From Candidatus Eiseniibacteriota bacterium (GTDB lineage: Bacteria > Eisenbacteria > RBG-16-71-46), in assembly GCA_038231135.1 (NCBI GenBank), contig JBBRLX010000007.1, forward strand, positions 65,475-129,474: a DNA stretch of 64,000 bases, read 5' to 3'. A program made the position numbers and the translations under genes. Of the stretch, positions 4,301 through 58,750 are shown piece after piece. Positions within the stretch are counted from its first letter, which is position 1; each line of letters opens with the position of its first letter. The notes beneath the pieces are model-generated. The model ran no database searches and was not told where the DNA came from. It worked only from the letters and a program-made list of their open reading frames with translations.

Positions 4301-5046
4301 GATGCCGCCTCCGCGTCGTAGCTCACGTGCTCGAGCGACAGCCCGCGCGCGGGCGCCGTGCGGGCCGCCGCGGCGCGGTCGCGCGCCGCCAGCACCGCGA
4401 GCATCGCCGCGCCCGGATCGCGGGTCCGGGCGGCGTCGACCACGGTGCCCACGATGTTGCGCACCATGTGATAGAGAAAGTGATCCGCGGCGATGTCGAG
4501 GCGCGGGCCCGAGTCCGACCCGGACCATGCGGCGAGATCGATGCGGCACACGGGATCGGCGGGCGAGCTGCCGGTGGCGCGGAACGACGAGCAGTCGTGG
4601 CAGCCGAGCAGCGGACGGGTCGCGGCGGCGAGCCGGTCGAGGTCGGGGGTGTGCCGCGGCCACCATGCAAACCGTCCCAGCAGCACGTCGTCGTGATCGA
4701 GCAGCCGGTACTGGTAGCGGCGCGCCCGCGCCGAGTGGCGCGCGTGGAATCCCGCGTGGGCCTCGGCGGCCGCCCGCACCCGCACGTCCGCCGGCAGCGC
4801 CCGGTCGAGCAGCGGGCGCAGCGCCTGCGCCGGCAGCGCGGTCGCGCTGTCGAACGACGCCACCTGGCCCCGCGCATGCACGCCGGCGTCGGTGCGTCCC
4901 GCCGCGTGCAGCGCCGCGACCGGTCCGCCCAGCACCCGGGCGAGCGCCTCCATCAGCGTGCCCTGCACCGTGCGCAGCCCGGGCTGCGACTGCCAGCCAT
5001 GGAACCCCGTGCCGTCATAGGCCACGAGCAGGCGGAACACCCGCAT
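4297..5046 (-). CDS. truA: tRNA pseudouridine(38-40) synthase TruA
   Basis: The product contains LVAYDGTGFHGWQSQ, GRTDAGVHA and the rest of the TruA fold motifs. Confidence 0.9.
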   Translation of the reverse strand: MRVFRLLVAYDGTGFHGWQSQPGLRTVQGTLMEALARVLGGPVAALHAAGRTDAGVHARGQVASFDSATALPAQALRPLLDRALPADVRVRAAAEAHAGFHARHSARARRYQYRLLDHDDVLLGRFAWWPRHTPDLDRLAAATRPLLGCHDCSSFRATGSSPADPVCRIDLAAWSGSDSGPRLDIAADHFLYHMVRNIVGTVVDAARTRDPGAAMLAVLAARDRAAAARTAPARGLSLEHVSYDAEAAS

Positions 5047-7012: not shown

Positions 7013-8503
7013 TCAACGCGCAGGCCGCGGCGGGCGGCGACGGAAACCCGCGAGCGCGATCAGCGCCGTCACCACCACCGCCAGCACGCCCGGCCAGTCG
7101 CCGAATCGAGTGTACAGCGTCGGGATGCCGGGCACGCCGAGCCGGCCCACCAGCACGCCCGGCCGCCACACCGGCAGCCGCCGCGTGACGCGCCCGTTCG
7201 CGTCGATCAGCTCCGTCAGCCCGGTGTTCGCGCAGCGCGCCAGCGGGACGTGGTTCTCGGCCGCACGGAACACCGCCATCGCGGCGTGCTGGTACAGCGC
7301 GGAACTGTTGCCGAACCATTCGTCGTTCGTGATGTTCACGAGCCAGCGCGCGCCGTGGCGCACGTCGTCGCGGGCCAGGTCCGGGAAGATCGACTCGAAG
7401 CAGATCAGCGTGCCGAACGGTCCGGGCGCGGCGTCGAACAGCACGCGTGCGCGGCCCGGCGTCCACTCGGCCTGGCCGAATTGCAGCTTGCCGAGCGCGG
7501 GCACCACCGACTGGAACGGCATCCGCTCGCCGAACGGCACCAGGTGCCGCTTGGCGTAGATCCTGCCCGTGGCGCCGTCGGGCTCGAACATGCCGGCGGC
7601 GTTGTAATAGCGCACGCCGCCGCCCGGCTCGAGCTCGTAGTCGGGGAATCCCGAAAACACCTGCACGCGGGCGGCGCCCGCGAGCGCCACCACCTGCAGC
7701 GCCTGATCGACCTGGAGCCGGAGATACGTGCCGGTCGCGGTCTCGGGCCAGATCACGATCGACGGCCGCGTGCTATCGGCCGCGGCGGCGCGCGTGAGCG
7801 CGAGGAACCGGTCGAGGATCTCCTTCGTGTGATGCCCGGACCATTTCATCTCGCCCGGCACGTTGCCCTGCACGAGCGCGACCGCCGGACCCAGGGTCCG
7901 CGGCGCGGCATCGAGCACGCGCTGCCCCCAGAACCACGGCAGCAGCACCGCCAGCACGGCGCCCGCCAGGGCCCGCGCCCGGCCGCCGCCACGCCACGCC
8001 TGCCAGATCAGCACGTTCAAGCCCAGCACCCACAGCGTCACCAGCGTGATGCCGCCCACGCTCGCGAGCTGGACGATCGGCGCGTACGCGTGCTGCGTGT
8101 AGCCGGGCTGGAACCACGGGAACCCCATCTCGCCCGCGGCGCGGAATTCCTCGACCACGAGGAACGCGAACGGCAGCACGAGCGCGAGCGGCGCCCGGGC
8201 GCGGCGCGCCAGCCATCCGGACAGCCAGGTGGCGAGGCCCGCGAACAGCGCCAGGTAGGCGGCGGCGAGCACCCACGCCGGATACTTGAGCCACGGCGTC
8301 GTCATCGCCACGTCGGCCAGCAGCGCGATCCAGTGCGTGCCGATCAGGAAGAACACCAGGCCGAACACGTAGCCGAGCCGGAACCACGCGCCGGGGCCCT
8401 GACCCGTGCGGACGCGCCGCTCGAGCGCCGCGAACAGCGGCACGAATCCGAACCACGCGAGCACGCCGAACGGGCCGGGCAGGAACGCGGCGCCCAGCAG
8501 CAC
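7013..8503 (-). CDS. lnt: Apolipoprotein N-acyltransferase
   Basis: The product has an N-terminal multi-TM domain followed by a CN-hydrolase domain (VIWPETA ... ICFESIFP ... ITNDEWFG), which is the Lnt architecture. Confidence 0.85.
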   Translation of the reverse strand: MLLGAAFLPGPFGVLAWFGFVPLFAALERRVRTGQGPGAWFRLGYVFGLVFFLIGTHWIALLADVAMTTPWLKYPAWVLAAAYLALFAGLATWLSGWLARRARAPLALVLPFAFLVVEEFRAAGEMGFPWFQPGYTQHAYAPIVQLASVGGITLVTLWVLGLNVLIWQAWRGGGRARALAGAVLAVLLPWFWGQRVLDAAPRTLGPAVALVQGNVPGEMKWSGHHTKEILDRFLALTRAAAADSTRPSIVIWPETATGTYLRLQVDQALQVVALAGAARVQVFSGFPDYELEPGGGVRYYNAAGMFEPDGATGRIYAKRHLVPFGERMPFQSVVPALGKLQFGQAEWTPGRARVLFDAAPGPFGTLICFESIFPDLARDDVRHGARWLVNITNDEWFGNSSALYQHAAMAVFRAAENHVPLARCANTGLTELIDANGRVTRRLPVWRPGVLVGRLGVPGIPTLYTRFGDWPGVLAVVVTALIALAGFRRRPPRPAR

Positions 8504-9604: not shown

Positions 9605-10618
<1,014 letters not shown>

Positions 10619-10657
10619 CCCGGCCTCCTCCCTGCCACCCGTGGCGGAGCGATCCCC

Positions 10658-12999: not shown

Positions 13000-13286
13000 G
13001 AACTCCGGCTCGGGATGGTGGGCTGTGGGATTGACACGAGACCGACATCCGGTCGGAGGGCCGGTGTCGCTACGTCAAGAGTACTGCTCGTTGCGTATCT
13101 TCGAAACCAGGTAGCCTAACCCTACCAGCCGCCCTTACCGAAGATATTGATCAGCTCCAGGATGAAGTCCACGAAACCCCACCTCCTTCAAGACAATTGC
13201 GTTGCGACCAGGGAGGAACGTATTCCTTACGAACGTTGGGTGGGATCCGCTTCGCTTTTCCGGATTTGATCGCTTCGCTTCGCCTC

Positions 13287-24660: not shown

Positions 24661-26448
24661 TCACCAGTCACGGCCACGGCGTTCCTTGAGCACGCGTACC
24701 TTGTGCTGGCGCTGCTGATCCATGCGCTGCATCTCCTGCAGCGCGTCGAGGATCTGTTCGGCCTGCGCGCGTCCCATGCCCTGGCGCGGCTGCGGCGCGC
24801 CCTCTGGCTGGGGCTCAGGACTCGGCGCGGGCGCCTGGCCGGGATTCGACTGCGGACTGGGCTGCGGGTTCTGCTGCGGTTGCGACGGCGAGGTCTGTGA
24901 CGGCGACGGCTGCGGCTGCGGGTTCTTCCGGGGCTGCTGCGATTGTGACTGCTCCCGCCGGCGCGCCAGCACTTCATAGTTCCAGCGCGCGTCGGCGTCC
25001 TCGGGATTGCGCTCGAGCGTGCGGCGCAGCGCACCCAGGGCGGGCTCGTATTGCTTCGCGTCGCCGAGCAGCGTGCCCAGGTTGTAGCCGGCCTCGTGAC
25101 CGGTGCGGTCCCCGCTCTGGGACAGGGTTTCCAGCTCGTGAATGCCCTCGGGTCCGTGGCCCGCGAGCGCGCGCGCCGTGGCGCGATTGACCCGCACGCC
25201 GGCGGGCGCATGCGGATCCTTGAGGCGCAGCGTATACAGCGACTCCGCCGCGGCGTAGCGGCCGGCCCGGAACGCCTGGTCACCGCGCGCCCACGCGCTC
25301 TGCGCCCGGACGTCGCGCGGCGCCAGCGCGGTCGCGGCCAGCGCGAGCGCCAGCAGCACCGCCGCCGCCGTCCGGCGGCGCTCGCCGCGGCCGCGCGCGC
25401 GCCGCACCGGAGTGCGGGCCGCGGACGCGGCGGCGAGCGGCGCCGCAGCCGCGCGGCGGCGCCCCGCGCGCGTGCGCTCGATCATGAGCAGCAGCGCGGC
25501 CAGCAGCGCGCACAGCGGGAACCGCCCGATCGGTCGCTCGATCAGCCGGTTGCCGCGCCCCGACTGCGCCACCGCGCCGAGCGACGCCAGCAGGCGCGGC
25601 AGCTCGCCGCCCGGACGCGACGCGGCGAAGTAGCCGCCGCGCGACCGTCGCCCGATCTGGCGCAGCAGGTTCTCGTCGAGCCGGCTGCGCACCGCGCTGC
25701 CGTTCTCGTCGCGCTTGATGTCGACGGCGCGCCCCTGGTCGTCCGTGACCGGCACCACGTCGCCGGCCGGCGTGCCGACGCCGACCGCGAACACCCGCAC
25801 GCCGCTGCCGACCACCTGGTCGAGCGCGCCCGTCGCGCCCTGCTCCAGGTCCTCGCCGTCCGTCCACAGCACGATGACCTGCTCCTCCCGATGCCCGGGC
25901 GGCAGCATCTTGAGCGCGGTGCGCAACCCCTTGCCGAGATCCGTGCCCGGTTCCGCGATCGTGAGGCTCGTGAGTCCTTCGATCGTGAGCCGCGCCGCGG
26001 CGCGGTCCAGCGTGAGCGGGCACAGCCGCACCGCCTCGCCGGCGAACCCGACGACCCCCACGCGGCTGCCGCCCAGCCGGTCGACGACGGCGAGCGCCTC
26101 GCGGCGGGCCTCGTCGATGCGGCTCGGCGGCACGTCGCGCGCGTCCATGCTCGCCGACACGTCCACCACCAGCACCACGTCCGAGCCCGTGGAGCCGCGG
26201 CGCACGGCCTCGCGGCCCCATTCGGGACGCGCCGCGCCGAGGATGAGGAACGCGAGCGCCACGAGCCGCAGCGTCGCGCCGATCGCGCGCTGGCCCGGAC
26301 GCAGCTGCCCGAGCAGCGCGTGCTCCGGACGCCCGCCGACGAGCCGCGCGAGCGCCGCCGCCGCGCGGCGCGCGGCGAACGCCTCGAGCAGCGCCACCAC
26401 CGGCAACGCCAGCAGCGCCATCAGCCAGCGCGGGTCGGCGAATGTCAC
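24661..26448 (-). CDS. batB: BatB-BatC fusion: a VWA domain with TM helices joined to a TPR repeat protein with a Pro/Gln/Ser-rich tail
   Basis: The N-terminus is BatA/BatB-like (VTFADPRWLMALLALPVVALL), followed by a VWA MIDAS motif (VVLVVDVSASM), a TM helix, a second signal/TM segment (TAAAVLLALALAATALA), TPR repeats and a PQ-rich low-complexity C-terminus. There is no stop codon between the BatB-like and BatC-like parts. The GTG start at 26448 has GGAGG 7 nt upstream. Confidence 0.7.
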   Translation of the reverse strand: MTFADPRWLMALLALPVVALLEAFAARRAAAALARLVGGRPEHALLGQLRPGQRAIGATLRLVALAFLILGAARPEWGREAVRRGSTGSDVVLVVDVSASMDARDVPPSRIDEARREALAVVDRLGGSRVGVVGFAGEAVRLCPLTLDRAAARLTIEGLTSLTIAEPGTDLGKGLRTALKMLPPGHREEQVIVLWTDGEDLEQGATGALDQVVGSGVRVFAVGVGTPAGDVVPVTDDQGRAVDIKRDENGSAVRSRLDENLLRQIGRRSRGGYFAASRPGGELPRLLASLGAVAQSGRGNRLIERPIGRFPLCALLAALLLMIERTRAGRRRAAAAPLAAASAARTPVRRARGRGERRRTAAAVLLALALAATALAPRDVRAQSAWARGDQAFRAGRYAAAESLYTLRLKDPHAPAGVRVNRATARALAGHGPEGIHELETLSQSGDRTGHEAGYNLGTLLGDAKQYEPALGALRRTLERNPEDADARWNYEVLARRREQSQSQQPRKNPQPQPSPSQTSPSQPQQNPQPSPQSNPGQAPAPSPEPQPEGAPQPRQGMGRAQAEQILDALQEMQRMDQQRQHKVRVLKERRGRDW

Positions 26449-26479
26449 GGACGGCCTCCGTCGGGATGCGGGACGCGGA

Positions 26480-27454
26480 TCATGGCAGCCGGAACGCGAA
26501 CGTGGTGCTGCCGAGCGCATAGGCGCCCATCAGGATCGCGGCGGCGCCGAGCAGCGCCGGACCCAGGTCGAAGTACTCCTTGTACTCGATCGACCGGATC
26601 GGCGCCCGCTCCAGCCGGTCGATCTGGGCATAGATGTCCGACAGCGCCGCGGGATCGGTGGCGCGGAAGAACTGGCCGCCGGTGCGCCGCGCGATGTCGC
26701 GCAGCGAACCCTCGTCGACGTCCATGCGCACCATCTCGGTGCGCCGGCCGAGCATGGGATCGTCGACCGGCACCGGGACCACGCCGCCGCGGCCCGCCAG
26801 CACGGTGTACACCTTCACCCCCATCGCCTTCGCGAGGTCCGCGGCGGTGAGCGGATCCACCGCGCCCCGATTGCTCTGGCCGTCCGTCAGCAGGATCACG
26901 ATCTTGCTCGGAGTGCGGCTCTCACGCAGCCCGGCGACCGCCGTCGCGAGCCCCATGCCAACGGCCGTGCCGTCCTCGGCCAGCCCGAAATCGAGGTTCT
27001 GCAGCAACTCCTCGAGCGCGTCATGGTCGAGCGTCAGCGGGCACTGGCTGAACGCGGTGCCCGCGAACCCGACGAGTCCGATGCGGTCGTGCTGGCGCTG
27101 GCGGATGAAATCCCGTGCGGTCTGCTTCGCGATAATCAGCCGGTTCGACGGCTGGAAATCCTCGGCGGCCATGCTCGGCGAGATGTCGATCGCGAGCATG
27201 ATGTCGACGCCCTGGGTCTCGACCTCGCTCTGGCGCAGCCCCTGCTGCGGCCGCGCCGCCGCGAGCAGCGCCAGCGTCATCGCGGCCCACGGCAGCAGGT
27301 CGAGCCCGCGCACCACCAGGCCCGCCAGTCCGCCCCGGATGCCGTCGGTGCGCACCCACAGCACCGAGGCGCGGCCGCCCTGCCGCCGTCCCCACAGCGC
27401 GGCGACCGGCACCAGCAGCAGCAGCGGCAGCAGCCACGGCATCTCCCAGCGCAT
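26480..27454 (-). CDS. batA: BatA: a VWA-domain aerotolerance protein with N- and C-terminal TM helices
   Basis: The product starts MRWEMPWLLPLLLLVPVAALW, has a VWA MIDAS motif (IMLAIDISPSM) and a C-terminal TM helix. The ATG start is at 27454 by track frame arithmetic. Confidence 0.8.
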   Translation of the reverse strand: MRWEMPWLLPLLLLVPVAALWGRRQGGRASVLWVRTDGIRGGLAGLVVRGLDLLPWAAMTLALLAAARPQQGLRQSEVETQGVDIMLAIDISPSMAAEDFQPSNRLIIAKQTARDFIRQRQHDRIGLVGFAGTAFSQCPLTLDHDALEELLQNLDFGLAEDGTAVGMGLATAVAGLRESRTPSKIVILLTDGQSNRGAVDPLTAADLAKAMGVKVYTVLAGRGGVVPVPVDDPMLGRRTEMVRMDVDEGSLRDIARRTGGQFFRATDPAALSDIYAQIDRLERAPIRSIEYKEYFDLGPALLGAAAILMGAYALGSTTFAFRLP

Positions 27455-30573: not shown

Positions 30574-31086
30574 TCAGGCGGCACGAGCGAACCGTGGCAG
30601 CTCGGCGTCGGAGCCCGGATCCGTGGCCTCGCGGGCACCGAGCACCTGCCATTCCGTGGCCGTGGGCGTGGCCACCGCGGCCCGAGCCCTCCCCTCGGCG
30701 TGGCGCGCCTGGATCTGCCAGGTGCCGAGCAGCGCGTGCGCGTCGACGAGCTCGAACGGCGGCGCCGGGGACTCGATCGCGTCGAGTTGCATCAACCGAT
30801 GCTCGATGTCGAGACAGTATTCCGCTTCGCGGCGCGTCTCGGCGCCCGACAGCACGCGCGCCATGAGCTGGTGGGTGCGCACGCGGGCGATCGCCTCGAC
30901 TTCGATCTCGCGGCGATAACGCACCAGCGCCGCCTCGAACATGGCGTCGGCCGCCGCGAACCGGCGCTCGTGGAGCGCGCGCAGTCCGGCGCGATGGAAC
31001 CGCGCCCCGGCGCACAGGACGCCCGCCATGGACAGGAACAGCCGTTCGAGGTCGAGCACGGGGGGTGCTCCTGGGGGTCGGGCCAT
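30574..31086 (-). CDS. Hypothetical protein
   Basis: The ORF is 170 aa from MARPPGAPPVLDLERLF and has very high GC3 in this frame. I see no recognisable motif. The upstream part of track ORF 30574..31377 is probably run-on. Confidence 0.35.
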   Translation of the reverse strand: MARPPGAPPVLDLERLFLSMAGVLCAGARFHRAGLRALHERRFAAADAMFEAALVRYRREIEVEAIARVRTHQLMARVLSGAETRREAEYCLDIEHRLMQLDAIESPAPPFELVDAHALLGTWQIQARHAEGRARAAVATPTATEWQVLGAREATDPGSDAELPRFARAA

Positions 31087-31350
31087 GCGGCCGGGCGGGT
31101 GGCGGCGTGGGTGCCGACCGGTCCGGGCCGCGAGAGGGTGCGCCATGCACAGTGCACATCCGGGGCCACACAGGTCCGGTCCATGACAAGTCCGCAAACC
31201 ATTGCCCCGCTGCCCCTCGGCGCGGGTCATCCGACCCACGGAAACCCAACTCCCAGAACCACCGTGCGCAATCCAACGCGCCTCCCCGTGGAATGCACGA
31301 GGGTCTGAACCCGTGCCAACCCCCGGAGGTAGGTGCCATTCGTCCGGCAG

Positions 31351-31400
31351 TGACGAGCGACGCGGCCAACGCAGCAATCGACGATTTTCAGCGGTCTGCG
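31351..31400. repeat. Copy 1 of a ~50-nt dispersed repeat, overlapping the last 4 codons and the 3' flank of glyA
   Basis: The plus strand reads ga(c)gagcgacgcggccaacgCGCAGCAATCGACGATTTTCAGCGGTCTGCG. The 31-nt core is 28/31 identical to the copy at 42838..42868. The core has CGCAG...CTGCG inverted ends and an ATCG-N-CGAT palindrome. Confidence 0.6.
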
Positions 31401-32629
31401 AACAATGGATAACCGCTGGCGAGTTCCAGCACCTCCTGATCGACCCCTTTCGCCAGCTCGAGGTCGTCCGGACGGTCGAGGATGCGCGCGATCCAGTCCG
31501 CGATCTTCCGCATCTCGTCGATGCCGAACCCGCGCGTGGTGAGCGCCGGCGTGCCGATGCGGATGCCGCTCGTCACCCACGGCTTCTGGGGATCGTTCGG
31601 CACGGCGTTCTTGTTCACGGTGATGCGCGAGCGGTGCAGCGCCTCCTCGGCGACCTTGCCGGTGATGCCGCGGCGCCTGAGATCGACCAGCATCAGGTGA
31701 TTGTCGGTGCCGTCCGACACCAGGTCGAAGCCGCGCTCCATCAGGAAGCCGGCCAGCGCCCGGGCATTGTCGACGACGCGCTGCTGGTAGCCCTTGAACC
31801 CGTCGCCGAGCGCCTCGCCGAAACACACCGCCTTCGCGGCGATGATGTGCATCAGCGGCCCCCCCTGCAGTCCGGGGAACACCGCCTTGTCCAGCTTCTC
31901 CGCCCACTCGGCGCGCGCCATCACCACGCCCCCGCGCGGACCGCGCAGCGTCTTGTGCGTGGTGGTGGTGACGAGGTCCGCGTGCGGCACCGGGCTCGGG
32001 TGGAGTCCCGCGGCGACGAGTCCGGCGATATGCGCCATGTCGACCACCAGCACGGCTCCCACCTCCCGGGCGATCGCCCCGAACCGCTCGAAGTCGATCA
32101 CCCGCGGATACGCGCTGGCGCCGGCGACGATCAGCCGCGGCCGGTGCTCGCGCGCGAGCCGCTCGACCGCGTCGTAGTCGATGCGGCCGTCCTCGGGCCG
32201 CACGCCGTACTGCACCGGCTTCCACAGCTTGCCGGTCACCGACACCGGATGGCCGTGCGTGAGATGCCCGCCGTGGGCGAGGCTCATCCCGAGCAGCGTC
32301 TGGCCCGGCTCCGACGCCGCCAGGTACGCGGCCAGGTTCGCCGACGCGCCCGAGTGCGGCTGCACGTTCGCATGATCGCAGCCGAACAACTGCTTCAGCC
32401 GCTCGATCGCGAGCTCCTCGGCGACATCGACGAACTCGCAGCCGCCGTAGTAGCGCTTGTGCGGCAGGCCTTCGGCATACTTGTTCGTGAGCACCGAGCC
32501 CTGCGCCTCCAGCACCGCGTCGCTCACGAAATTCTCCGACGCGATCAGCTCGAGCGTGGTCCGCTGCCGCTGCTGCTCGGCGGCGATCGCGGCGTAGATC
32601 GCCGGGTCCTGCGTGGCGAGTGCGGACAT
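31388..32629 (-). CDS. glyA: Serine hydroxymethyltransferase
   Basis: The start is taken at [22 protein letters not shown], and the product includes the PLP-binding region ([14 protein letters not shown]). The end of the gene, ...[10 protein letters not shown], was verified against the sequence. Confidence 0.9.
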
Positions 32630-32642
32630 GGTCTCCTTCACG

Positions 32643-33104
32643 TCATGGCCGGGCGTCATGCGCGGCCTCGTAGTCGTGGATCTTGCGCAGGCGCGCCACG
32701 TGCCGGCCGCCCTCGAACGGGGTGTCGAGCCAGATGCGCAGCCAGCGCGCACACGCCTCGTGATCGGGATTCGTGCGGCCGCCGAGCGCCAGCACGTTGG
32801 AGTCGTTGTGCAGCCGGGTGAGACGCGCGGTGTCGTCGCTCGTCACCACCGACGCGCGGATGCCCGCCACCTTGTTCGCCACGATGCTCTCGCCGATACC
32901 GCTGCCGCCGAGCACGATGCCGCGGTCGGCATCGCCGCGGCTCACCATCTCGGCGACCGGAAAGCAGAAATCGGGATAGTCGACGGGCGGCGCCGCGGCC
33001 ATCGTGCCGAAGTCCGTCACCTCGTGGCCGAGCCGCTCGAGTTCGAGTTTGAGCCGCTCCTTGAGCGCGAACCCGGCGTGGTCGCCGCCGATCGCCACCT
33101 TCAT
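32643..33104 (-). CDS. rpiB: Ribose-5-phosphate isomerase B (RpiB/LacAB family)
   Basis: The product starts [16 protein letters not shown] and contains [17 protein letters not shown] and VLALGGR, matching RpiB. Confidence 0.85.
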
Positions 33105-40059: not shown

Positions 40060-40349
40060 GGAGTCACGTTCTCGACGATCGGCGGCACGAGGAAGAACGG
40101 CCCGTCGGTCTCGGGCGCCCCCGCCAGCGCGGCGTCGGCGCCAAGCACCCGGCCGTCGGGAGCGTCGTCGCGCAGCGGCGCGTCGGCCGGCGCGAACACC
40201 ATCGGATCGCAGCCCGTGAGATCCAGCCGCTCGAGCGCCGCCACGAACTCGAGCACGCTCGACAGCTCCGCCGCCATGCGTGCGATGCCCGCCTCCGGCA
40301 GCTCGAGCCGGGCGAGCGTGGCGATGCGACGCACTTCGTCACGATCCAA
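40056..40349 (-). CDS. gatC: Glutamyl-tRNA(Gln) amidotransferase subunit C
   Basis: The product is 97 aa and contains RIATLARLELPEAGIARMAAELSSVLEFV. It sits in a gatC-gatA-gatB order with a 4-nt overlap into gatA. Confidence 0.85.
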   Translation of the reverse strand: MDRDEVRRIATLARLELPEAGIARMAAELSSVLEFVAALERLDLTGCDPMVFAPADAPLRDDAPDGRVLGADAALAGAPETDGPFFLVPPIVENVTP

Positions 40350-42663
40350 GCACGGCCTCCCCGGTCAGGAACCGGCCCAGCACCTTCTTCACGCGGGTGC
40401 CGAACCGCACGGTGTACTTGATCTCACCGCCGGCCTCCTCGGCCGCCACCACCACCCCGTCGCCGAACTGCTCGTGGCGCACACGCTGGCCGACGCGCCG
40501 GTCGGCCCGCGCGGCGGCCGACACGCGCAACGGCGTGCCCGGTGTGATCGTGTCGAGATCGTCGTACTCCCCCGCCTCGGCCGGCGCCGCGTCCTCGTCC
40601 CAGCGGCTCTTGTTCTCGCCCCAGCGCTCGCGCATATTCGGGCTCCAGCCGGGCCGCGTCTGGGCGGCATGGCGGGCCGCCGCCGACGGCCGCGGCGCGT
40701 CGAACCGCCGCCGGTCCTCGCGCACCAGCAGCGCTGCGGGGATTTCGTCCACGAATCGCGACACCTGGCCGCCGCGCGCGCCGTCGAACCGGCGGCGGAA
40801 CGCCGCGGCCGTCAGCAACAGCTCGTCCTGCGCGCGCGTGAGCGCCACGTAGAACAGCCGGCGCTCCTCCTCGAGCTGGTCCGCGCGCTCGAGCGACGAG
40901 GCATGAGGCATCAGTCCCTCCTCGAGGCCGATGATCACGACCGCCGGGAACTCGAGACCCTTCGCGTTATGGCCGGTCAGCAGCAGCACGCGGTCGCCGT
41001 TCTCGCCCGCGCGATCGGCGTCGGTGACGAGCGCCGCCTCGGCGAGGAATCCCGGCACCGTGGCGCCGGCTACGCCCGTGAACGTGCCGGCCGCCACCAG
41101 CAGCTCCTCGACGTTCGCCCGGCGTTCGGCCGCGTCCTCGCCGTCCCCCAGCGAATCGAGATAGCGGGTGTGCTCGAGCACTCGCGCCAGCACCCGGTCG
41201 ACCGGGGCGTCGAGCAGCGTGCCCAGTTCGTCGAGCAGCTGGAGCAGCTCGGTCGCGCCCCGCCGCGCCGCGGGGGCGATGCCCTGCTCCGCCACCAGCG
41301 CCCGCAACGCGGACGGCGCGGGCGCGCCGTTCGCCAGGACCCGCTGCTCGACCGCCGCGCGCACCACGCTGCCGAGCCCGCGGCGCGGCGTGTTCCAGAT
41401 CCGCCAGAACGCCGCGGCATCGGCGGGATTCGCCGCCACCCTCAGGTAGGCGATCAGGTCCTTCACCTCGCGCCGCTGGTAGAACGACACGCCGCCCACG
41501 AGTTCGTACGGGATCAGCGAGTGGCGCAGCTCGGTCTCGAGCGCCCGCGACTGCGCGTTCGTGCGGTACAGCACCGCGCAATCCGCGAGTTTCCCGCCGC
41601 GCGCCACGCGCGCGACCAGGAACTCGCGCACCCGGCGCGCCTCGTCCACCTCGTCCGCCGCCAGCACGAACCGCAGCGGCACGCCGGGGCCGCGCTCGCT
41701 CCACAGCGTCTTGCCCTTGCGCGCGCGGTTGTTCGAGATCACGGCGTTCGCCGCGTCGAGGATGCTCGTCGTCGAACGGTAGTTCTGCTCCAGCCGCACC
41801 ACGGCGGCGCCGGCGAACGTGGTCTCGAAGTCGAGCACGTTCCTCAGATCCGCGCCGCGCCAGCCGTAGATCGACTGGTCGTCGTCGCCGACCACGAACA
41901 CCGTGCCGCGATCGCCCACCAGCGCCTGGATCATGCGGAACTGGGCGTGGTTCGTGTCCTGGTATTCGTCGACCAGCACGTGCGAGAACCGCGCGCGGTA
42001 ACGGTCCCCCACGTCGGGATGGGTGCGGAACAACTCGACGGTGCGGGCGATCAGGTCGTCGAAGTCGAACGCGCCGCAGCGGCGCAGCTCCTGGTCGTAC
42101 AGCGTGTAGGCTTCCGCGGTGCGGCGATCCTGCGGCGAGAACGCCGTGCGCGCGAAGTCCTCGGGACCCACGAGCGAGTTCTTCGCGTCGCTGATCGCCG
42201 CCAGCACCGCTCCCGCCCGCCAGGTGCCGTCGGGCCAGCCGAGCCGCCGGGCGATATCCTTGATCAGCGACTCCTGGTCCTCACGATCGTAGATCGCGAA
42301 CGCCGCCGGCACGCCGAGCACGCGCGCCTCGCGCCGCAGGATGCGCACCGCCGTGGCATGGAACGTCCCGACCCACAGCTCCCTGGACACGTCGCCGACG
42401 AGGCTCGCGATCCGGGCGCGCATCTCGCGCGCCGCGCGGTTCGTGAACGTGAACGCCAGGATCGCCGATGGCGCCACGCCGCGATCCAGCAGCCACGCCA
42501 CGCGCGCCGTGAGCACGCGGGTCTTACCGCTCCCCGCCCCCGCGATCACGAGCACCGCCCGCGCCTCGTGCTCGACCGCCGCACGCTGGGCGCTGTTGAG
42601 ACTGTCCAAAAGCTGCAAGGGTACCTCGGGTAGTCGCAGGGGTTCCAAAGGGTTCCCCTGCAA
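40339..42663 (-). CDS. uvrD: ATP-dependent DNA helicase (UvrD/PcrA family, SF1)
   Basis: The product has a Walker A motif (AGAGSGKTRVLTARVA), motifs II-VI (VDEYQDTN ... VGDDDQSIYGWRGA ... GTFH) and a C-terminal Tudor-like domain (GQRVRHEQFGDGVVV). Confidence 0.9.
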   Translation of the reverse strand: MQGNPLEPLRLPEVPLQLLDSLNSAQRAAVEHEARAVLVIAGAGSGKTRVLTARVAWLLDRGVAPSAILAFTFTNRAAREMRARIASLVGDVSRELWVGTFHATAVRILRREARVLGVPAAFAIYDREDQESLIKDIARRLGWPDGTWRAGAVLAAISDAKNSLVGPEDFARTAFSPQDRRTAEAYTLYDQELRRCGAFDFDDLIARTVELFRTHPDVGDRYRARFSHVLVDEYQDTNHAQFRMIQALVGDRGTVFVVGDDDQSIYGWRGADLRNVLDFETTFAGAAVVRLEQNYRSTTSILDAANAVISNNRARKGKTLWSERGPGVPLRFVLAADEVDEARRVREFLVARVARGGKLADCAVLYRTNAQSRALETELRHSLIPYELVGGVSFYQRREVKDLIAYLRVAANPADAAAFWRIWNTPRRGLGSVVRAAVEQRVLANGAPAPSALRALVAEQGIAPAARRGATELLQLLDELGTLLDAPVDRVLARVLEHTRYLDSLGDGEDAAERRANVEELLVAAGTFTGVAGATVPGFLAEAALVTDADRAGENGDRVLLLTGHNAKGLEFPAVVIIGLEEGLMPHASSLERADQLEEERRLFYVALTRAQDELLLTAAAFRRRFDGARGGQVSRFVDEIPAALLVREDRRRFDAPRPSAAARHAAQTRPGWSPNMRERWGENKSRWDEDAAPAEAGEYDDLDTITPGTPLRVSAAARADRRVGQRVRHEQFGDGVVVAAEEAGGEIKYTVRFGTRVKKVLGRFLTGEAVLGS

Positions 42664-42818
42664 TCTAGCGGAATCCCGGGGTTACTTCCATGCAGTGGAG
42701 CTCACCGCGTCGCGGGTCCCGGAGCTTTCGGCCGCAGGTCCCTTTAGGCCGCTGAAAACGGTCGAGTGCAAGGCGGCAAGGAGCGACGAGCGCAGGCGTA
42801 TCGTCAGACACTCCGGGG

Positions 42819-42868
42819 CGAGGAGCGACGCAGCCGCCGCAGCAATCGACGATTCTCAGCAGCCTGCG
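42819..42868. repeat. Copy 2 of the ~50-nt dispersed repeat, directly 3' of the stop of the Omp85-chimera gene
   Basis: The plus strand reads gaggagcgacgcagccgccgCGCAGCAATCGACGATTCTCAGCAGCCTGCG, followed by the CTA stop. Confidence 0.6.
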
Positions 42869-45800
42869 CTAGAACTCCGGACCTACGGACACGTGCCAGC
42901 GGGGGCGGCTGGTGCCGGCCAGGTTGGTGTTCCACCCCGCGTCGACCTTGAGGATCAGGAAGTAGAGCGCCGTGCGGATGCCGGCGCCGAAGCCGAGCTT
43001 CAGGTCGTCGAGACGGCGGCGGCCGTCCTCCACGCTCGACAGCCGCACGCGGTCGGCGGCGTCCCACACGAATCCCGCGTCCGAGAACAGCGCGCCGCGG
43101 AGGTTGAACACTCCGACCGGGATCGGTCCCAGGATGCCGAGCTGCTCGATGAACGGGAATCGCAGTTCGGCATTGACGATCGCCACGCGCGAACCGAGCA
43201 GGTCGAAATCGGGATAGCCGCGCAGCGTCGAATACCCGCCGACCCGGAACGTCTGCCGGTCGGGGCCGTCGCTGCGGCCGGTGAGTACGCGGGTGGCGAA
43301 CGTATAACCCCGCGTGAGGTCCCAGTAGCGCCGCGCGTCGAACGTGACGGTCTGGTACTGCAGCGCGTCGTGGAGCACCGCGAACGCCGGCGCGTAGGTC
43401 AGGTTCCAGCGCTGACCGTTCACGGGGCCGTAGTAGCCGAACAGCGCATTGTCGCCGATCAGCGACAGCGACGGCGACGTGACGGCGCGGTACTGCCGGG
43501 TGGACTTGAAGAAGTTCCCGGCGTCGTCCTCGGCGAAGAACTGCCGGTCGACGAACATCTGGGTGAGGTTGAGCTCCGCGCGCCGGAACCGGTCGAACGG
43601 ATACGACGCCGTGACGAGGCCGCCGAACGTTCGCTCCGAGAACAGCCGCGTGCCGTCGAGCTGTTCGCCGAGCGTCGTCACCTGCGACGAGAAGTAGTCC
43701 TTGAAATGGAACAGCCCGGCGCCGAAGTCGACCCGCCGCTTGAGATAACTGTAGACCACGAGCGCGTTCGTCTCGCTGATCGAGCTCGAGAACAGGTCGG
43801 TCGCGACGTACAGGCTGTGGTCGCCGAGGAAGTCGCTGAACGCGAACTGGGTGCTGCCGACGAAGCCGAACCCGCTGCCGGCGTAGAACCCGCCCCCGGC
43901 GTAGTCCGGCGCCAGCCGCACGTGGTAGCGCGACGGTCGCTGCGCCAGCACCGAGTCCGGCAGCGCAAACGGGCCGCCGTGCTCGACGAGCGCGATGCGC
44001 GGCACGATCGCGGCCACGGTGTCCATCGGCACCGGCAGCCGGGTCTCGCCGGCGAACCGGTCGTCGATGGCGCCCCGGCCGGAGCGCCTGGTCCCGGCGG
44101 GCGGCCCGAGCCCGCCGGTCGCGGGGAACGCGAGCGTCGAATCCTCGTGCGTCACGGTCACGCTGTCGGGCAGCGTGCGCGCGAGCGCCGCCACTCGCGG
44201 CGGCGGCGCGGCCGAGTCGGCGGGCGCGCTCCGCGCGGTCGCCGAATCGAGCACCGCTCCCGGCGAGCGCCGGCGCAGCCGCTCGAACACCGCGTCGAGC
44301 GACAGCGGCTCCCTGACCGCGAACACGTCGAACCCGCCGCGGTTGAACGCCGCGAACACCAGCCGGTCGTTCTGCCGCGACCACGACAGGCTCTGCACGC
44401 CGCCGAGCACGTCGGTGAGCTGCACGTACGAGCGCTCGGCGACGTCGTACAGATAGACATTGGACGTGCCGTCACGGTCGCTGATGAACGCGAGCCGCCG
44501 GCCGTCGGGAGACCACGCGGGCGCGTGGTCGTTGCCGGAGGTGTCGAGCGTGCGGGTGATCGCGCCCGATGCCAGATCCAGGCTGTAGAGCGCGTAGCTG
44601 CCGAAGCCGCCCGCGCGGGCCGCCGGTTCGAGCACGACGGGCGCGAGCCGGTCGGAGGCGAACGTCAGCGTGCGGCCGTCGGGCGTCCACGCCGGCTCCT
44701 TCTCGTCCCAGGTGTCGTTCGTGAGCCGCGTGGCCGCACCCGTCGCGGCGTCCACCAGCCACAGGTCCGACCGGCCGTCCTTCACCCCGGCCACCGCGAT
44801 CGAGTCGCCGTGCGGCGCCCACGCCGGGTAGTACAACGCCTCGCACGGGAGCTGGATGCGCTTGAGCGTGCTGCCGTTGCGCGCCGACACCACGTACAGC
44901 ACGTCGCTGCCGCCGCTCTTCGCGGTGAGCGCGAGCCTCGAGCCATCGGGCGACCAGGTGATCGAGCTGCGGTACGACGGGATCGCCTCGTACTGGTAGT
45001 TGCGCTCGCCGCGGATCACGCGGTGCAGCACCTTGCCGTCGAACGCGGACATCACGTAGATGTCGGTGTACTGGCGGCGGTCCGAGAACCACGCGATGCG
45101 GTCGCCCTGCGGCGAGATCGCCGGCGCGGTGTTGAGCGTGCTCTGATCACGCCGGTGATCGGTGAGCCGCCGAGCGAACTCCTCGGGCGACTGCTTGTGC
45201 GCCACGGTCGGCCAGTAGCGCTTGCGCAGCCAGTTGCGCCACTGTTCGTCGAACTTCGGCACCGACAGTCCGACGCTGGCCTGGAACGCGCGCTCGAAGC
45301 CGTGGTTCTGCCGGATGCGCTTGAGGATATCGCGCAGCCGGTCCTCCCCGTAGCGCTCGACGAGATAGCCGAGCGCCGACTGCCCCTGCTTGTAGACGAT
45401 GTAGCCGCCCGAGTACATGAGCGGCGGCAGGTAGCCCTCGATGATGCCGTCGCGCAGGAACATCTCGGCGTTCGGTTCCATGCCGAGCGACAGGTACTCC
45501 GCCATGCCCTCGGCGAACCACAGCGGCACCGAATAGAAGCTCTGCCGCGCGATCAGCGCCGCCGCCGACCCGCCGTACAGCATGTCGAACATGATGGCAT
45601 GCGTGAGTTCGTGCACCACCACGTGGCGCAGGTCCTCGTAGGAGCCGGTGAACGGCAGCACCACCCGGTTGCGCAGCACCTCGGTGAACCCGCCGGTGCC
45701 GGCGTCGATCAGCTCGGGCGTGACGTTGGTCTGGGAGAACTCGTTGTGGGAGCCATACAGAATGATGGGGACGCGGCGCGACAGCACATGGCCCATGCGC

Positions 45801-46027
45801 ACCGACAGCACGGCGTGCGTCTTCTCGGCAAGGTCGAGCACCCGCATCGCGAGCGAGTCCTCGCCGGCGTAGAAATACACGTCGAAGTGGTCGGATTCGA
45901 TCGAGCGCCAGTCGTGGACGCTGTACTGGACCTTGTTCTGGCCGAAGTACTGGGCGTGAGCGGTCCCGGCGGGAACGAGGGCGAGCAGCGCGAGCAGTGC
46001 GCCCACGGCAATGTGCAGACGATGCAA
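42869..46027 (-). CDS. Outer-membrane Omp85-family (bacterial surface antigen D15) beta-barrel protein with an N-terminal zinc-metallopeptidase-like domain and a TolB-like PD40 beta-propeller; it has no POTRA domains
   Basis: It has a signal peptide (the proposed TTG start gives MHRLHIAVGALLALLALVPAGTAHA, with GGGGTGAG upstream). The N-terminal domain has an HEXXH motif (VVVHELTHAIMFD) and FAEGMAEY. The central region has PD40-type repeats (WSPDGSRLAL, WAPHGDSIAV, WTPDGRTLTF, WSPDGRRLAFISDRDG). The C-terminal ~330 aa aligns to the BamA barrel (RGY ... VNAELRFP ... ALFSDAGFVWD ... GFGAGIRT ... WHVSVGPEF, ending in an aromatic residue). Confidence 0.7.
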   Translation of the reverse strand: MHRLHIAVGALLALLALVPAGTAHAQYFGQNKVQYSVHDWRSIESDHFDVYFYAGEDSLAMRVLDLAEKTHAVLSVRMGHVLSRRVPIILYGSHNEFSQTNVTPELIDAGTGGFTEVLRNRVVLPFTGSYEDLRHVVVHELTHAIMFDMLYGGSAAALIARQSFYSVPLWFAEGMAEYLSLGMEPNAEMFLRDGIIEGYLPPLMYSGGYIVYKQGQSALGYLVERYGEDRLRDILKRIRQNHGFERAFQASVGLSVPKFDEQWRNWLRKRYWPTVAHKQSPEEFARRLTDHRRDQSTLNTAPAISPQGDRIAWFSDRRQYTDIYVMSAFDGKVLHRVIRGERNYQYEAIPSYRSSITWSPDGSRLALTAKSGGSDVLYVVSARNGSTLKRIQLPCEALYYPAWAPHGDSIAVAGVKDGRSDLWLVDAATGAATRLTNDTWDEKEPAWTPDGRTLTFASDRLAPVVLEPAARAGGFGSYALYSLDLASGAITRTLDTSGNDHAPAWSPDGRRLAFISDRDGTSNVYLYDVAERSYVQLTDVLGGVQSLSWSRQNDRLVFAAFNRGGFDVFAVREPLSLDAVFERLRRRSPGAVLDSATARSAPADSAAPPPRVAALARTLPDSVTVTHEDSTLAFPATGGLGPPAGTRRSGRGAIDDRFAGETRLPVPMDTVAAIVPRIALVEHGGPFALPDSVLAQRPSRYHVRLAPDYAGGGFYAGSGFGFVGSTQFAFSDFLGDHSLYVATDLFSSSISETNALVVYSYLKRRVDFGAGLFHFKDYFSSQVTTLGEQLDGTRLFSERTFGGLVTASYPFDRFRRAELNLTQMFVDRQFFAEDDAGNFFKSTRQYRAVTSPSLSLIGDNALFGYYGPVNGQRWNLTYAPAFAVLHDALQYQTVTFDARRYWDLTRGYTFATRVLTGRSDGPDRQTFRVGGYSTLRGYPDFDLLGSRVAIVNAELRFPFIEQLGILGPIPVGVFNLRGALFSDAGFVWDAADRVRLSSVEDGRRRLDDLKLGFGAGIRTALYFLILKVDAGWNTNLAGTSRPRWHVSVGPEF

Positions 46028-50285: not shown

Positions 50286-50353
50286 GAGCCGATCACCAGC
50301 CCGCGCAGCCGCGGCGCGGGAGCGCAGCCGACGAAACAGGCAACCACGTGCCG

Positions 50354-50504
50354 CGATGGCGTGCGGGGTGAGGTTCCGGAGGCGGGGACCGAGCGCAGCG
50401 CGCGAGTGCAGGGATGCGCGGAGCGCTGCGCGAGTAGCGAGGACCCGCCAGGAGGGCGGGTCCGAAGCGTCCCCGCCGTAGGAACCTCACCCCGCACGCC
50501 ATCG
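50354..50504. repeat. A 151-bp element with 35-bp terminal inverted repeats (32/35 matching) enclosing an 81-bp spacer that has inner hairpins, in the bamA-tamB intergenic region
   Basis: The left arm is cgatggcgtgcggggtgaggttccggaggcgggga (50354-50388). The right arm is tccccgccgtaggaacctcaccccgcacgccatcg (50470-50504), which is its reverse complement with 3 mismatches. An inner 8-bp-stem hairpin, gacccgcc-aggag-ggcgggtc, lies at 50442-50462. A 14-bp palindrome, TCACCGCGCGGTGA, lies at 50548-50561. The two short opposite-strand MACGVRF ORFs in the track mirror this repeat. Confidence 0.7.
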
Positions 50505-50577
50505 CAGCGAAGAACCCGTCCCCGCCGGGGGAATCTCACCCCGGTCGTCACCGCGCGGTGAAGGCGCAGAACACGCA

Positions 50578-58322: not shown

Positions 58323-58750
58323 CCGCCGCGCGCGTGTCGTGCGCGCACCCGCTCATAGAGGCCACCCGCGCCGGGCGTGGTCGCCGCCGGCGCGTCCGCC
58401 GCGATGTCCAGGTCGGGCGCGAGCGAGCGCAGGATCGTGGCGGGGGTGCGATCGTGGAACACCACCACCAGATCCACCGCGCGCAGCGCAGCGATCACGC
58501 GCGCCCGCATGACCTCGTCCATCACGGGCCGGCCCGGACCCGCGAGCGCCGCGGCGGCCGCGTCGCCCATCACGGCGGCGACGAGCCGGGTGCCCCGGGC
58601 GCGGGCCGCCGCCAGCGCGCGCGCGTGGTCCACACCGGGCAGGTCGAACATGCCGTGCGCAAACACCACCACATCGCCGGCCGTCCGCCAGCGGCGGACG
58701 CGCTCCACCGCGTCCGGCAGCGACACGAGCTTGTCGGCGGCCCGCCGCAT
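58319..58750 (-). CDS. Cytidylyltransferase-like protein (RfaE/HldE domain-II-like heptose-1-phosphate adenylyltransferase); it looks divergent
   Basis: The ORF is 143 aa from MRRAADKLVSL, and the product contains VVVFAHGMFDL ... GPGRPVMDEVMRARVIAALRAVDLVVVFHD. The canonical HxGH motif is not obvious. The upstream 113 aa of the track ORF is run-on. Confidence 0.5.
   Translation of the reverse strand: MRRAADKLVSLPDAVERVRRWRTAGDVVVFAHGMFDLPGVDHARALAAARARGTRLVAAVMGDAAAAALAGPGRPVMDEVMRARVIAALRAVDLVVVFHDRTPATILRSLAPDLDIAADAPAATTPGAGGLYERVRARHARGG

Follow-up and report, generated by a model that had tools for sequence, protein, structure and literature searches.

REP sequences are 20 to 40 nt long, carry a GTAG-type head, occur in hundreds of copies that are often clustered as BIMEs, and are linked to RAYT transposases. 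Like the ERIC/IRU sequences of enterobacteria, they are imperfect palindromes that follow stop codons, and both groups have been proposed to stabilize mRNA 3' ends or to act as terminators. The Correia/NEMIS elements of Neisseria are bacterial MITEs located in 3' UTRs. For high-GC bacteria, locus-specific hairpin terminators of the "I-shaped" type, which lack a U-tail, have been described. QMITE2 of Coxiella measures 150 to 190 bp and lies for the most part in 3' UTRs (PMC5896051).

The imperfect palindrome described here resembles QMITE2 and Correia/NEMIS in several respects. Its size falls in the range of ~100 to 190 bp, its long terminal inverted repeats (~26 to 27 nt) allow the whole unit to fold as a hairpin, it encodes no protein, and it is intergenic, right behind ORFs whose ends it can overlap. 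It is also present in some and absent from other related strains. The terminal inverted repeats around a noncoding unit of less than ~500 bp by which MITEs are recognized were found as 27-nt arms in the copy of a related genome (locus L041) and as arms matching at 17 of 22 positions, plus G-U pairs, in the window (the whole stretch of 64,000 nucleotides that was analyzed). In contrast to QMITE2 and Correia/NEMIS, the element has no definable target-site duplication, no IS with matching ends is known as its parent, its known copies are two in 64 kb and one in another genome, and DNA-level complementarity between the arms of the window copy is limited to ~77%. A TIR search of plasmid records returned no sequence similarity to known elements. 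With REP/BIME and ERIC/IRU, it has in common that it is an imperfect palindrome after stop codons between codirectional genes and that it is present or absent in related genomes. However, its length of ~120 nt, the lack of a GTAG head at either end, its single occurrence per site, and its low density set it apart from REP/BIME, and no Y1 transposase was detected in the scanned ORFs of the window. As in I-shaped terminators, a long GC-rich stem-loop without a T-run directly follows the stop codon, here in a genome of 72% GC, whereas homology of more than 100 nt that includes loop and interior would not be expected of such terminators between unrelated loci and genomes.

The names of homologues assign the window to Candidatus Eisenbacteria, and the population is contained in the metagenomes SRR19962014 and SRR19962015. 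Almost all confidently coding ORFs of the window, which has a GC content of 72%, are located on the minus strand. A repeat of ~50 nt had been pointed out in an earlier note at the 3' ends of two of these genes, and both stretches were recovered at the positions given there. Using blastn within the window, 31352-31400 aligned to 42820-42868 with 42 of 49 positions identical (85.7%; E, ~1e-10), above the threshold of ~70% that had been set for the pair. The 23-mer CGCAGCAATCGACGATTYTCAGC occurs exactly twice in the window and was not seen in any of 100 shuffles. Both copies adjoin or overlap the 3' ends of minus-strand genes, glyA in one case and an Omp85/PD40/peptidase chimera in the other. The difference in stop-codon geometry that had been remarked on was confirmed: the TGA of glyA falls within the first copy, and the TAG of the 1,100-aa chimera ORF (42869-42871, minus strand) directly abuts the second. 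Since coding is on the minus strand nearly throughout, any intergenic element here lies at the 3' end of some gene; the nontrivial part of the placement is the direct contact with stop codons. The argument that the repeat is not maintained by coding also held, given that six of the seven differences are nonsynonymous in the only open shared frame. A coding hypothesis was thus discarded, the frames being open only through GC content. Coordinates of the features are given in Table 1.

Table 1. Positions in the window of the two element copies and of the genes next to them
Feature	Coordinates	Strand	Remarks
Intact palindromic element copy, ~120-nt hairpin	42746..42868	-	Starts immediately after the chimera TAG
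5' arm of intact copy	42834..42868	-	Paired in MFE and centroid structures; within the second copy of the earlier note (42819-42868)
3' arm of intact copy	42746..42779	-	Core GGCCGCTGAAAACGGTCGAGTGC at 42747-42769 on the + strand
Conserved 5' segment of glyA-side copy	31352..31400	-	Holds the last glyA codons and TGA (31388-31390)
Decayed remainder of glyA-side copy	31250..31351	-	Weak interior homology CCCTCGTGCATTCCAC; boundary uncertain
glyA (serine hydroxymethyltransferase)	31388..32629	-	Pfam SHMT, E 3e-164; ends ...YPLFADR, stop
Hypothetical gene (~151 aa) downstream of glyA	30574..31029	-	Syntenic with 131-161-aa genes in relatives
Peptidase_MA / PD40 beta-propeller / Omp85 chimera	42869..46027	-	Pfam; C-terminus ...VGPEF, stop
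uvrD/pcrA helicase, downstream of intact copy	40339..42618	-	Pfam UvrD, E 2e-84; codon table

The reported repeat is the 5' arm, together with the adjacent interior, of an imperfect palindrome of ~120 to 125 nt. Its counterpart on the Omp85 side, a third, inverted arm at 42747-42769, had been overlooked in the earlier note. The two arms match each other's reverse complement at 17 of 22 positions (~77% DNA-level complementarity), and three further positions are G-U compatible on the minus-strand (sense) RNA; as the arms share no exact 6-mer, an exact-seed repeat finder misses the pair. Folded as minus-strand RNA, the Omp85-side copy reached an MFE of -65 kcal/mol (z, -3.5), which none of 200 shuffles equaled. 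In this hairpin, the repeat segment pairs with the distal 3' arm ~70 nt away. The hairpin that had been suspected exists at the Omp85 locus, but the local CGCAG/CTGCG ends and ATCG-N-CGAT, from which it had been deduced, do not form it: neither is conserved in the related genome, and a 1-nt loop cannot fold. The copy scored 144.8 bits with a covariance model, R1, a value that is not independent because R1 was built from two sequences, this copy among them.

Within the same copy, a 14-nt internal direct repeat, GGCRAGGAGCGACG, flanks a small apical hairpin (42776-42789 and 42818-42831, + strand). Its sense-RNA sequence, CGUCGCUCCUYGCC, is rich in C and U and resembles an anti-Shine-Dalgarno sequence; a similar pair can be recognized in the L041 copy. 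Folding as a general property of spacers was considered and rejected, as the L035 spacer and the L038 filler folded no better than shuffles.

The view of the repeat as a palindromic element that is probably mobile or duplicated was supported by a homologous copy in another genome. L041 is a locus from the related MAG GCA_031364845.1, whose GlyA is 85% identical to that of the window, and it carries a full hairpin at its own glyA stop codon (z, -5.3) with two 27-nt arms, which show 89% complementarity and are separated by 73 nt. This copy is 74% identical to the Omp85-side copy of the window over 123 nt (E, 2e-12) and, over 53 nt at the 5' end, 75% identical to the glyA-side copy, whose TGA falls in the same register. 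When the two full copies are compared, four stem pairs are changed on both sides and still paired (AATCGTCGA/TCGACCGTT versus AAACCCGA/TCGGGCTT, for example), and standard pairs fill 62 of 62 cells; this covariation is only suggestive, coming from two full sequences and a structure modeled on the same two. The CGCAG...CTGCG ends and the 11-nt palindrome AATCGnCGATT are indeed present in both window copies, and within the window the palindrome occurs only there. They were not kept in L041, where the palindrome position reads AAACCCGATT (AAAC-CCGATT).

To judge the degree of conservation, the element was set against neutral sequence. The glyA genes of the window and L041 agree at 65% of their 4-fold sites on what is essentially a two-letter G/C alphabet, i.e., near saturation, and other spacer sequence is not alignable between them. 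Against these saturated sites, an identity of 74% in the element points either to constraint or to a more recent common ancestry through mobility or exchange. Recombination or horizontal transfer of the glyA 3' end between the two lineages was examined by sliding-window identity, which gave no signal. The L041 copy folds better as antisense than as sense RNA (-75.3 versus -66.8 kcal/mol), and only on the antisense strand can the mismatches between its arms form G-U pairs. With G-U pairs on the sense strand in the window and on the antisense strand in L041, the asymmetry is inconsistent, which argues for a DNA-level palindrome over strand-specific selection on RNA.

The glyA-side copy of the window keeps the 5' ~50 nt of the element, and its remainder has decayed. 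In the alignment, it remains weakly homologous to the interior of the other copies past the 49 nt. Of the hairpin, an outer stem of 13 bp (31250-31265 with 31389-31402) is retained in the centroid structure; there is no intact partner arm, and the fold is equal to that of shuffles (z, about 0.0 to 0.13). The end of the encoded protein is unusual as well. For 119 of the 120 listed GlyA homologues, at least six residues follow the conserved PLF(A), most often WEPV(A/L)R. The single exception is the window's own protein, in which only DR follows PLFA (PLFADR), so that the shortened tail is unique among the 120 listed. We infer that the last GlyA codons and the stop are supplied by the 5' arm of the element. 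A displaced native glyA tail was sought downstream of the window copy (TTCTGGGAG), and the candidate was set aside as ambiguous, the same bases being readable as a decayed 3' arm. In the database, the glyA gene call starts at 32659 (423 aa).

The hypothetical gene that follows glyA has no Pfam family, and the gene 3' of it is MoxR. All relatives have a conserved box of the sigma-54 type (TGGCACCGAAGCTGCA or TGGCACCGATCGTGCA) upstream of this small gene (L037, ~7385-7402; L038, ~7484-7501; L041, ~7499-7516; L042, ~1956-1973; and the spacers between glyA and the hypothetical gene of L044 to L047). It was not found at the corresponding place in the window, where the spacer is longer (358 nt). A sigma-54 activator gene is located at 9605-10657 of the window.

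At the other site, the coding sequence is unaltered. The Omp85 chimera is 100% identical to the database protein P0001 over 1,052 aa, its C-terminus is unchanged, and the same C-terminal codons are used in relatives. The start of uvrD was placed at TTG 42618, judging from a GAGG motif 5 nt upstream. Close upstream of uvrD lies a conserved CGCTAGATTGC box (window, 42664-42674, minus strand; L035, ~4528-4540; L043, ~13250-13262), which is probably the -10 region of the uvrD promoter or a regulatory site and is distinct from the palindrome. The synteny of the Omp85 chimera, uvrD, gatCAB, purD, and purE is kept in related MAGs and metagenome contigs; further on, the order rpiB, glyA, small hypothetical gene, and MoxR is conserved.

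Orthologous loci were compared for the presence of the element. L037 and L042 are ~90% identical to L041 in glyA DNA, and in these two a shared TCGTGCAC block follows the glyA stop after 4 to 10 nt, versus 115 nt in L041. The element is absent from the glyA stop in L037, L042, and L044 to L047. In the spacer between the Omp85 chimera and uvrD, it is present in the window and absent in L035 and L043. The comparison of orthologous glyA 3' ends called for in the earlier note thus gave one filled and several empty sites. Filled and empty orthologous sites, as at both positions here, are the insertion polymorphism typical of MITEs, with the reservation that some of the empty sites may stem from deletion. 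L042 keeps the GCGGGCCGCTGA end with TCTC behind it, possibly the scar of a deletion. When filled L041 was compared with empty L037 and L042, no clear direct repeat could be recognized at the target site. The flanks are GC rich and near-palindromic, those of L041 look like inverted rather than direct copies, and direct and inverted readings are not separable in such sequence. At the Omp85 site, the right flank is not alignable to the empty sites of L035 and L043. Another related locus, L038, contains an unrelated filler of 103 nt (7255-7357; z, 0.3) between the glyA stop and a conserved TCGTGCA block. As this filler occupies the position of the L041 element, the glyA 3' site looks like a hotspot of sequence turnover.

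Known copies of the element are the two in the 64-kb window and the one in 27 kb of GCA_031364845.1. R1 with its filters switched off and sensitive blastn were applied to the window and to ~150 kb of related loci, and both recovered only the known copies; a stretch at 58543-58578, considered as a third copy, was dismissed as GC-rich coding noise. Scans of public genomes and metagenomes with the pattern GCAMTCGACSRTTYTCAGCRG returned 16 and 17 singletons, respectively, from unrelated taxa, at a chance expectation of ~9 for the genome set (computed from 37 bits of pattern information). None of these matches showed similarity past the pattern, which is narrow and excludes the L041 variant. A looser pattern covering both variants would read, for example, GCTGARAA-N3-4-CGATTGCTGCG or TTGCACTCGRSC-N0-1-TTYTCAGCG. 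Scans of viral contigs with two patterns covering the L041 variant gave no matches. Among 25 window ORFs scanned against Pfam, there was no transposase, RAYT, or integrase. With respect to a cognate autonomous IS, no arm-like sequence was found elsewhere in the window and no similar TIR in plasmid records. A contig break inside the element in Logan data (L034) was considered as a hint of repetition and discarded, since the Logan contigs of that sample are simply fragmented.

Rfam gave nothing at gathering score in the whole window and nothing at an E value of 1 or less at either locus. At neither site did the minus strand contain a consensus for U-tract terminators; in the scanned regions, this consensus was matched only by a 5-bp stem on the plus strand, inside the Omp85 ORF. 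Accordingly, the sequences after the 3' arms, CCTAAAGGGACC in the window and CCATTCGTGC in L041, lack the U-tract of intrinsic terminators. No relevant sigma-70-type promoter consensus was found in the scanned regions.

Two observations were made elsewhere in the window. The BamA-like Omp85 gene (stop, 50578) and TamB (start, 50285) are separated by a 292-nt spacer (50286-50577), and in L036 and L043 these genes overlap or lie 9 nt apart. The spacer contains a 159-nt hairpin with 40-nt arms (50350-50389 and 50469-50508) that are 90% complementary. It also contains a second, unrelated short repeat, GTCCCCGCCnnnGGAAYCTCACCCCG, at 50364-50389 (minus strand), 50469-50494 (plus strand), and 50518-50543 (plus strand), where chance would give 0. 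The arrangement looks REP/BIME-like, and this second family at 50364-50543 is closer to REP/BIME than is the 120-nt element. Its presence in the spacer indicates that palindromic repeats do colonize spacers in this genome. In the second case, ARAGORN predicted a 94-nt "tRNA-???" with a 4-base anticodon at 25444-25537 (minus strand), inside a VWA-domain ORF (24661-26529). This prediction is probably a false positive.

We interpret the palindrome, with a probability of roughly 0.5, as a low-copy, MITE- or REP-like, nonautonomous repeat that occupies stop-codon-adjacent positions in an Eisenbacteria-like lineage and possibly forms a 3' stem-loop. According to this interpretation, the element would have been inserted or copied as DNA into the spacers behind glyA and the Omp85 chimera, and at glyA its 5' arm would now supply the final residues and the TGA of a protein with a shortened tail. 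The Omp85-side copy would have arisen in the lineage of the window from the element pool of the same genome. Copying within the genome would explain the lineage-specific bases (AATCGTCGATT) that are common to both window copies. These common bases, together with the interior that the Omp85-side copy shares with L041, form the pattern expected if the glyA copy decayed after such copying. If it is cotranscribed with the upstream gene, the element would yield a long stem-loop starting at the stop codon, which could serve as a terminator without a U-tail or as a 3'-end stabilizer, by analogy with what has been proposed for REP, ERIC, and Correia-type repeats. It may also be simply selfish or neutral. 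Three copies at two kinds of site count against a multicopy family being demonstrated, and the absence of further copies, of a definable target-site duplication, and of a transposase counts against the MITE/REP-like interpretation.

The main alternative, possible if rather doubtful, is that a long stem-loop embedding the glyA stop codon arose or became fixed at the glyA 3' end in an ancestor, that several lineages lost it when the palindrome was deleted, and that a single copying event in the lineage of the window brought it into the Omp85-uvrD spacer, with no family and no transposition machinery involved. The identical register of the window and L041 glyA copies relative to the TGA would fit a vertically inherited, locus-specific hairpin as well as mobility. 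In addition, L042, which lacks the element, has native terminal glyA codons (GCGGGCCGCTGA) that are matched at 10 of 12 positions by the 5' end of the Omp85-side copy (GCAGGCTGCTGA); this copy could have been templated from the glyA locus. The scar-like end of L042 and the lack of additional copies in any DNA examined are in line with such a history. However, three or four independent losses would be required on a star-like tree, and an identity of 74 to 75% despite saturated neutral sites needs purifying selection or recent exchange. A function under selection would be one that sister lineages dispense with, and the ectopic copy sits exactly at another stop codon.

It is unlikely that the element is primarily a functional cis-acting RNA, i.e., a stem-loop embedding the stop codon that acts as a terminator, attenuator, stability element, or 3'-UTR-derived sRNA and was copied because it is useful. 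Such a role would agree with the highly significant folds (z of -3.5 in the window and -5.3 in L041), with the compensatory changes and the three arm differences of the window copy that form G-U pairs on the sense strand, and with conservation above the neutral expectation. Both copies also lie between codirectional genes, the downstream gene having its own conserved promoter-like box. Yet Rfam holds no match, neither site has a U-tract terminator, and the strand asymmetry is inconsistent, with L041 folding better as antisense. At both sites, sister lineages do without the element, the glyA copy of the window has lost its structure, and the covariation comes from two full sequences with a structure derived from both.

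Less probable still is a "stop-codon cassette," a mobile or copyable hairpin that lands by preference on ORF ends or is retained there, supplies the last residues and the stop, as at glyA in one and the same register in two genomes, and has been selected as a translation-coupled 3' terminator or stabilizer in Eisenbacteria, whose 72% GC genomes are poor in U-tracts; this would explain why the element is conserved above neutral DNA between genomes.

The protein-binding role proposed in the earlier note, considered here with AATCGnCGATT as the operator of a dimeric regulator such as an SOS-type repressor, is largely refuted and highly improbable: the restriction of the 11-nt palindrome to the two copies within the window and the position of uvrD downstream of one of them, which had also prompted us to consider and reject an SOS/LexA operator, are outweighed by the loss of the palindrome in L041 (AAACCCGATT), by the lack of it upstream of uvrD in relatives, where the common CGCTAGATTGC box lies beside the start, by the distance of the site from uvrD (~220 to 250 nt upstream) and from the other downstream gene (~350 nt upstream), and by a similarity far longer than an operator-sized site.

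Literature searches on small palindromic repeats in Eisenbacteria returned nothing, and if the MITE/REP-like interpretation is correct, the element would be the first small palindromic repeat known to us from uncultured members of this group. It opens no new mechanism, since the comparable REP, ERIC, Correia, and QMITE2 elements are well known, and it would matter more only if it were a selected terminator module that embeds the stop codon. The case also shows how what is noticed as a short "dispersed repeat" can turn out to be one arm of a larger hairpin. Under the same interpretation, the element would be a marker of genome plasticity, and the rewritten C-terminus of GlyA would call for caution in annotation.
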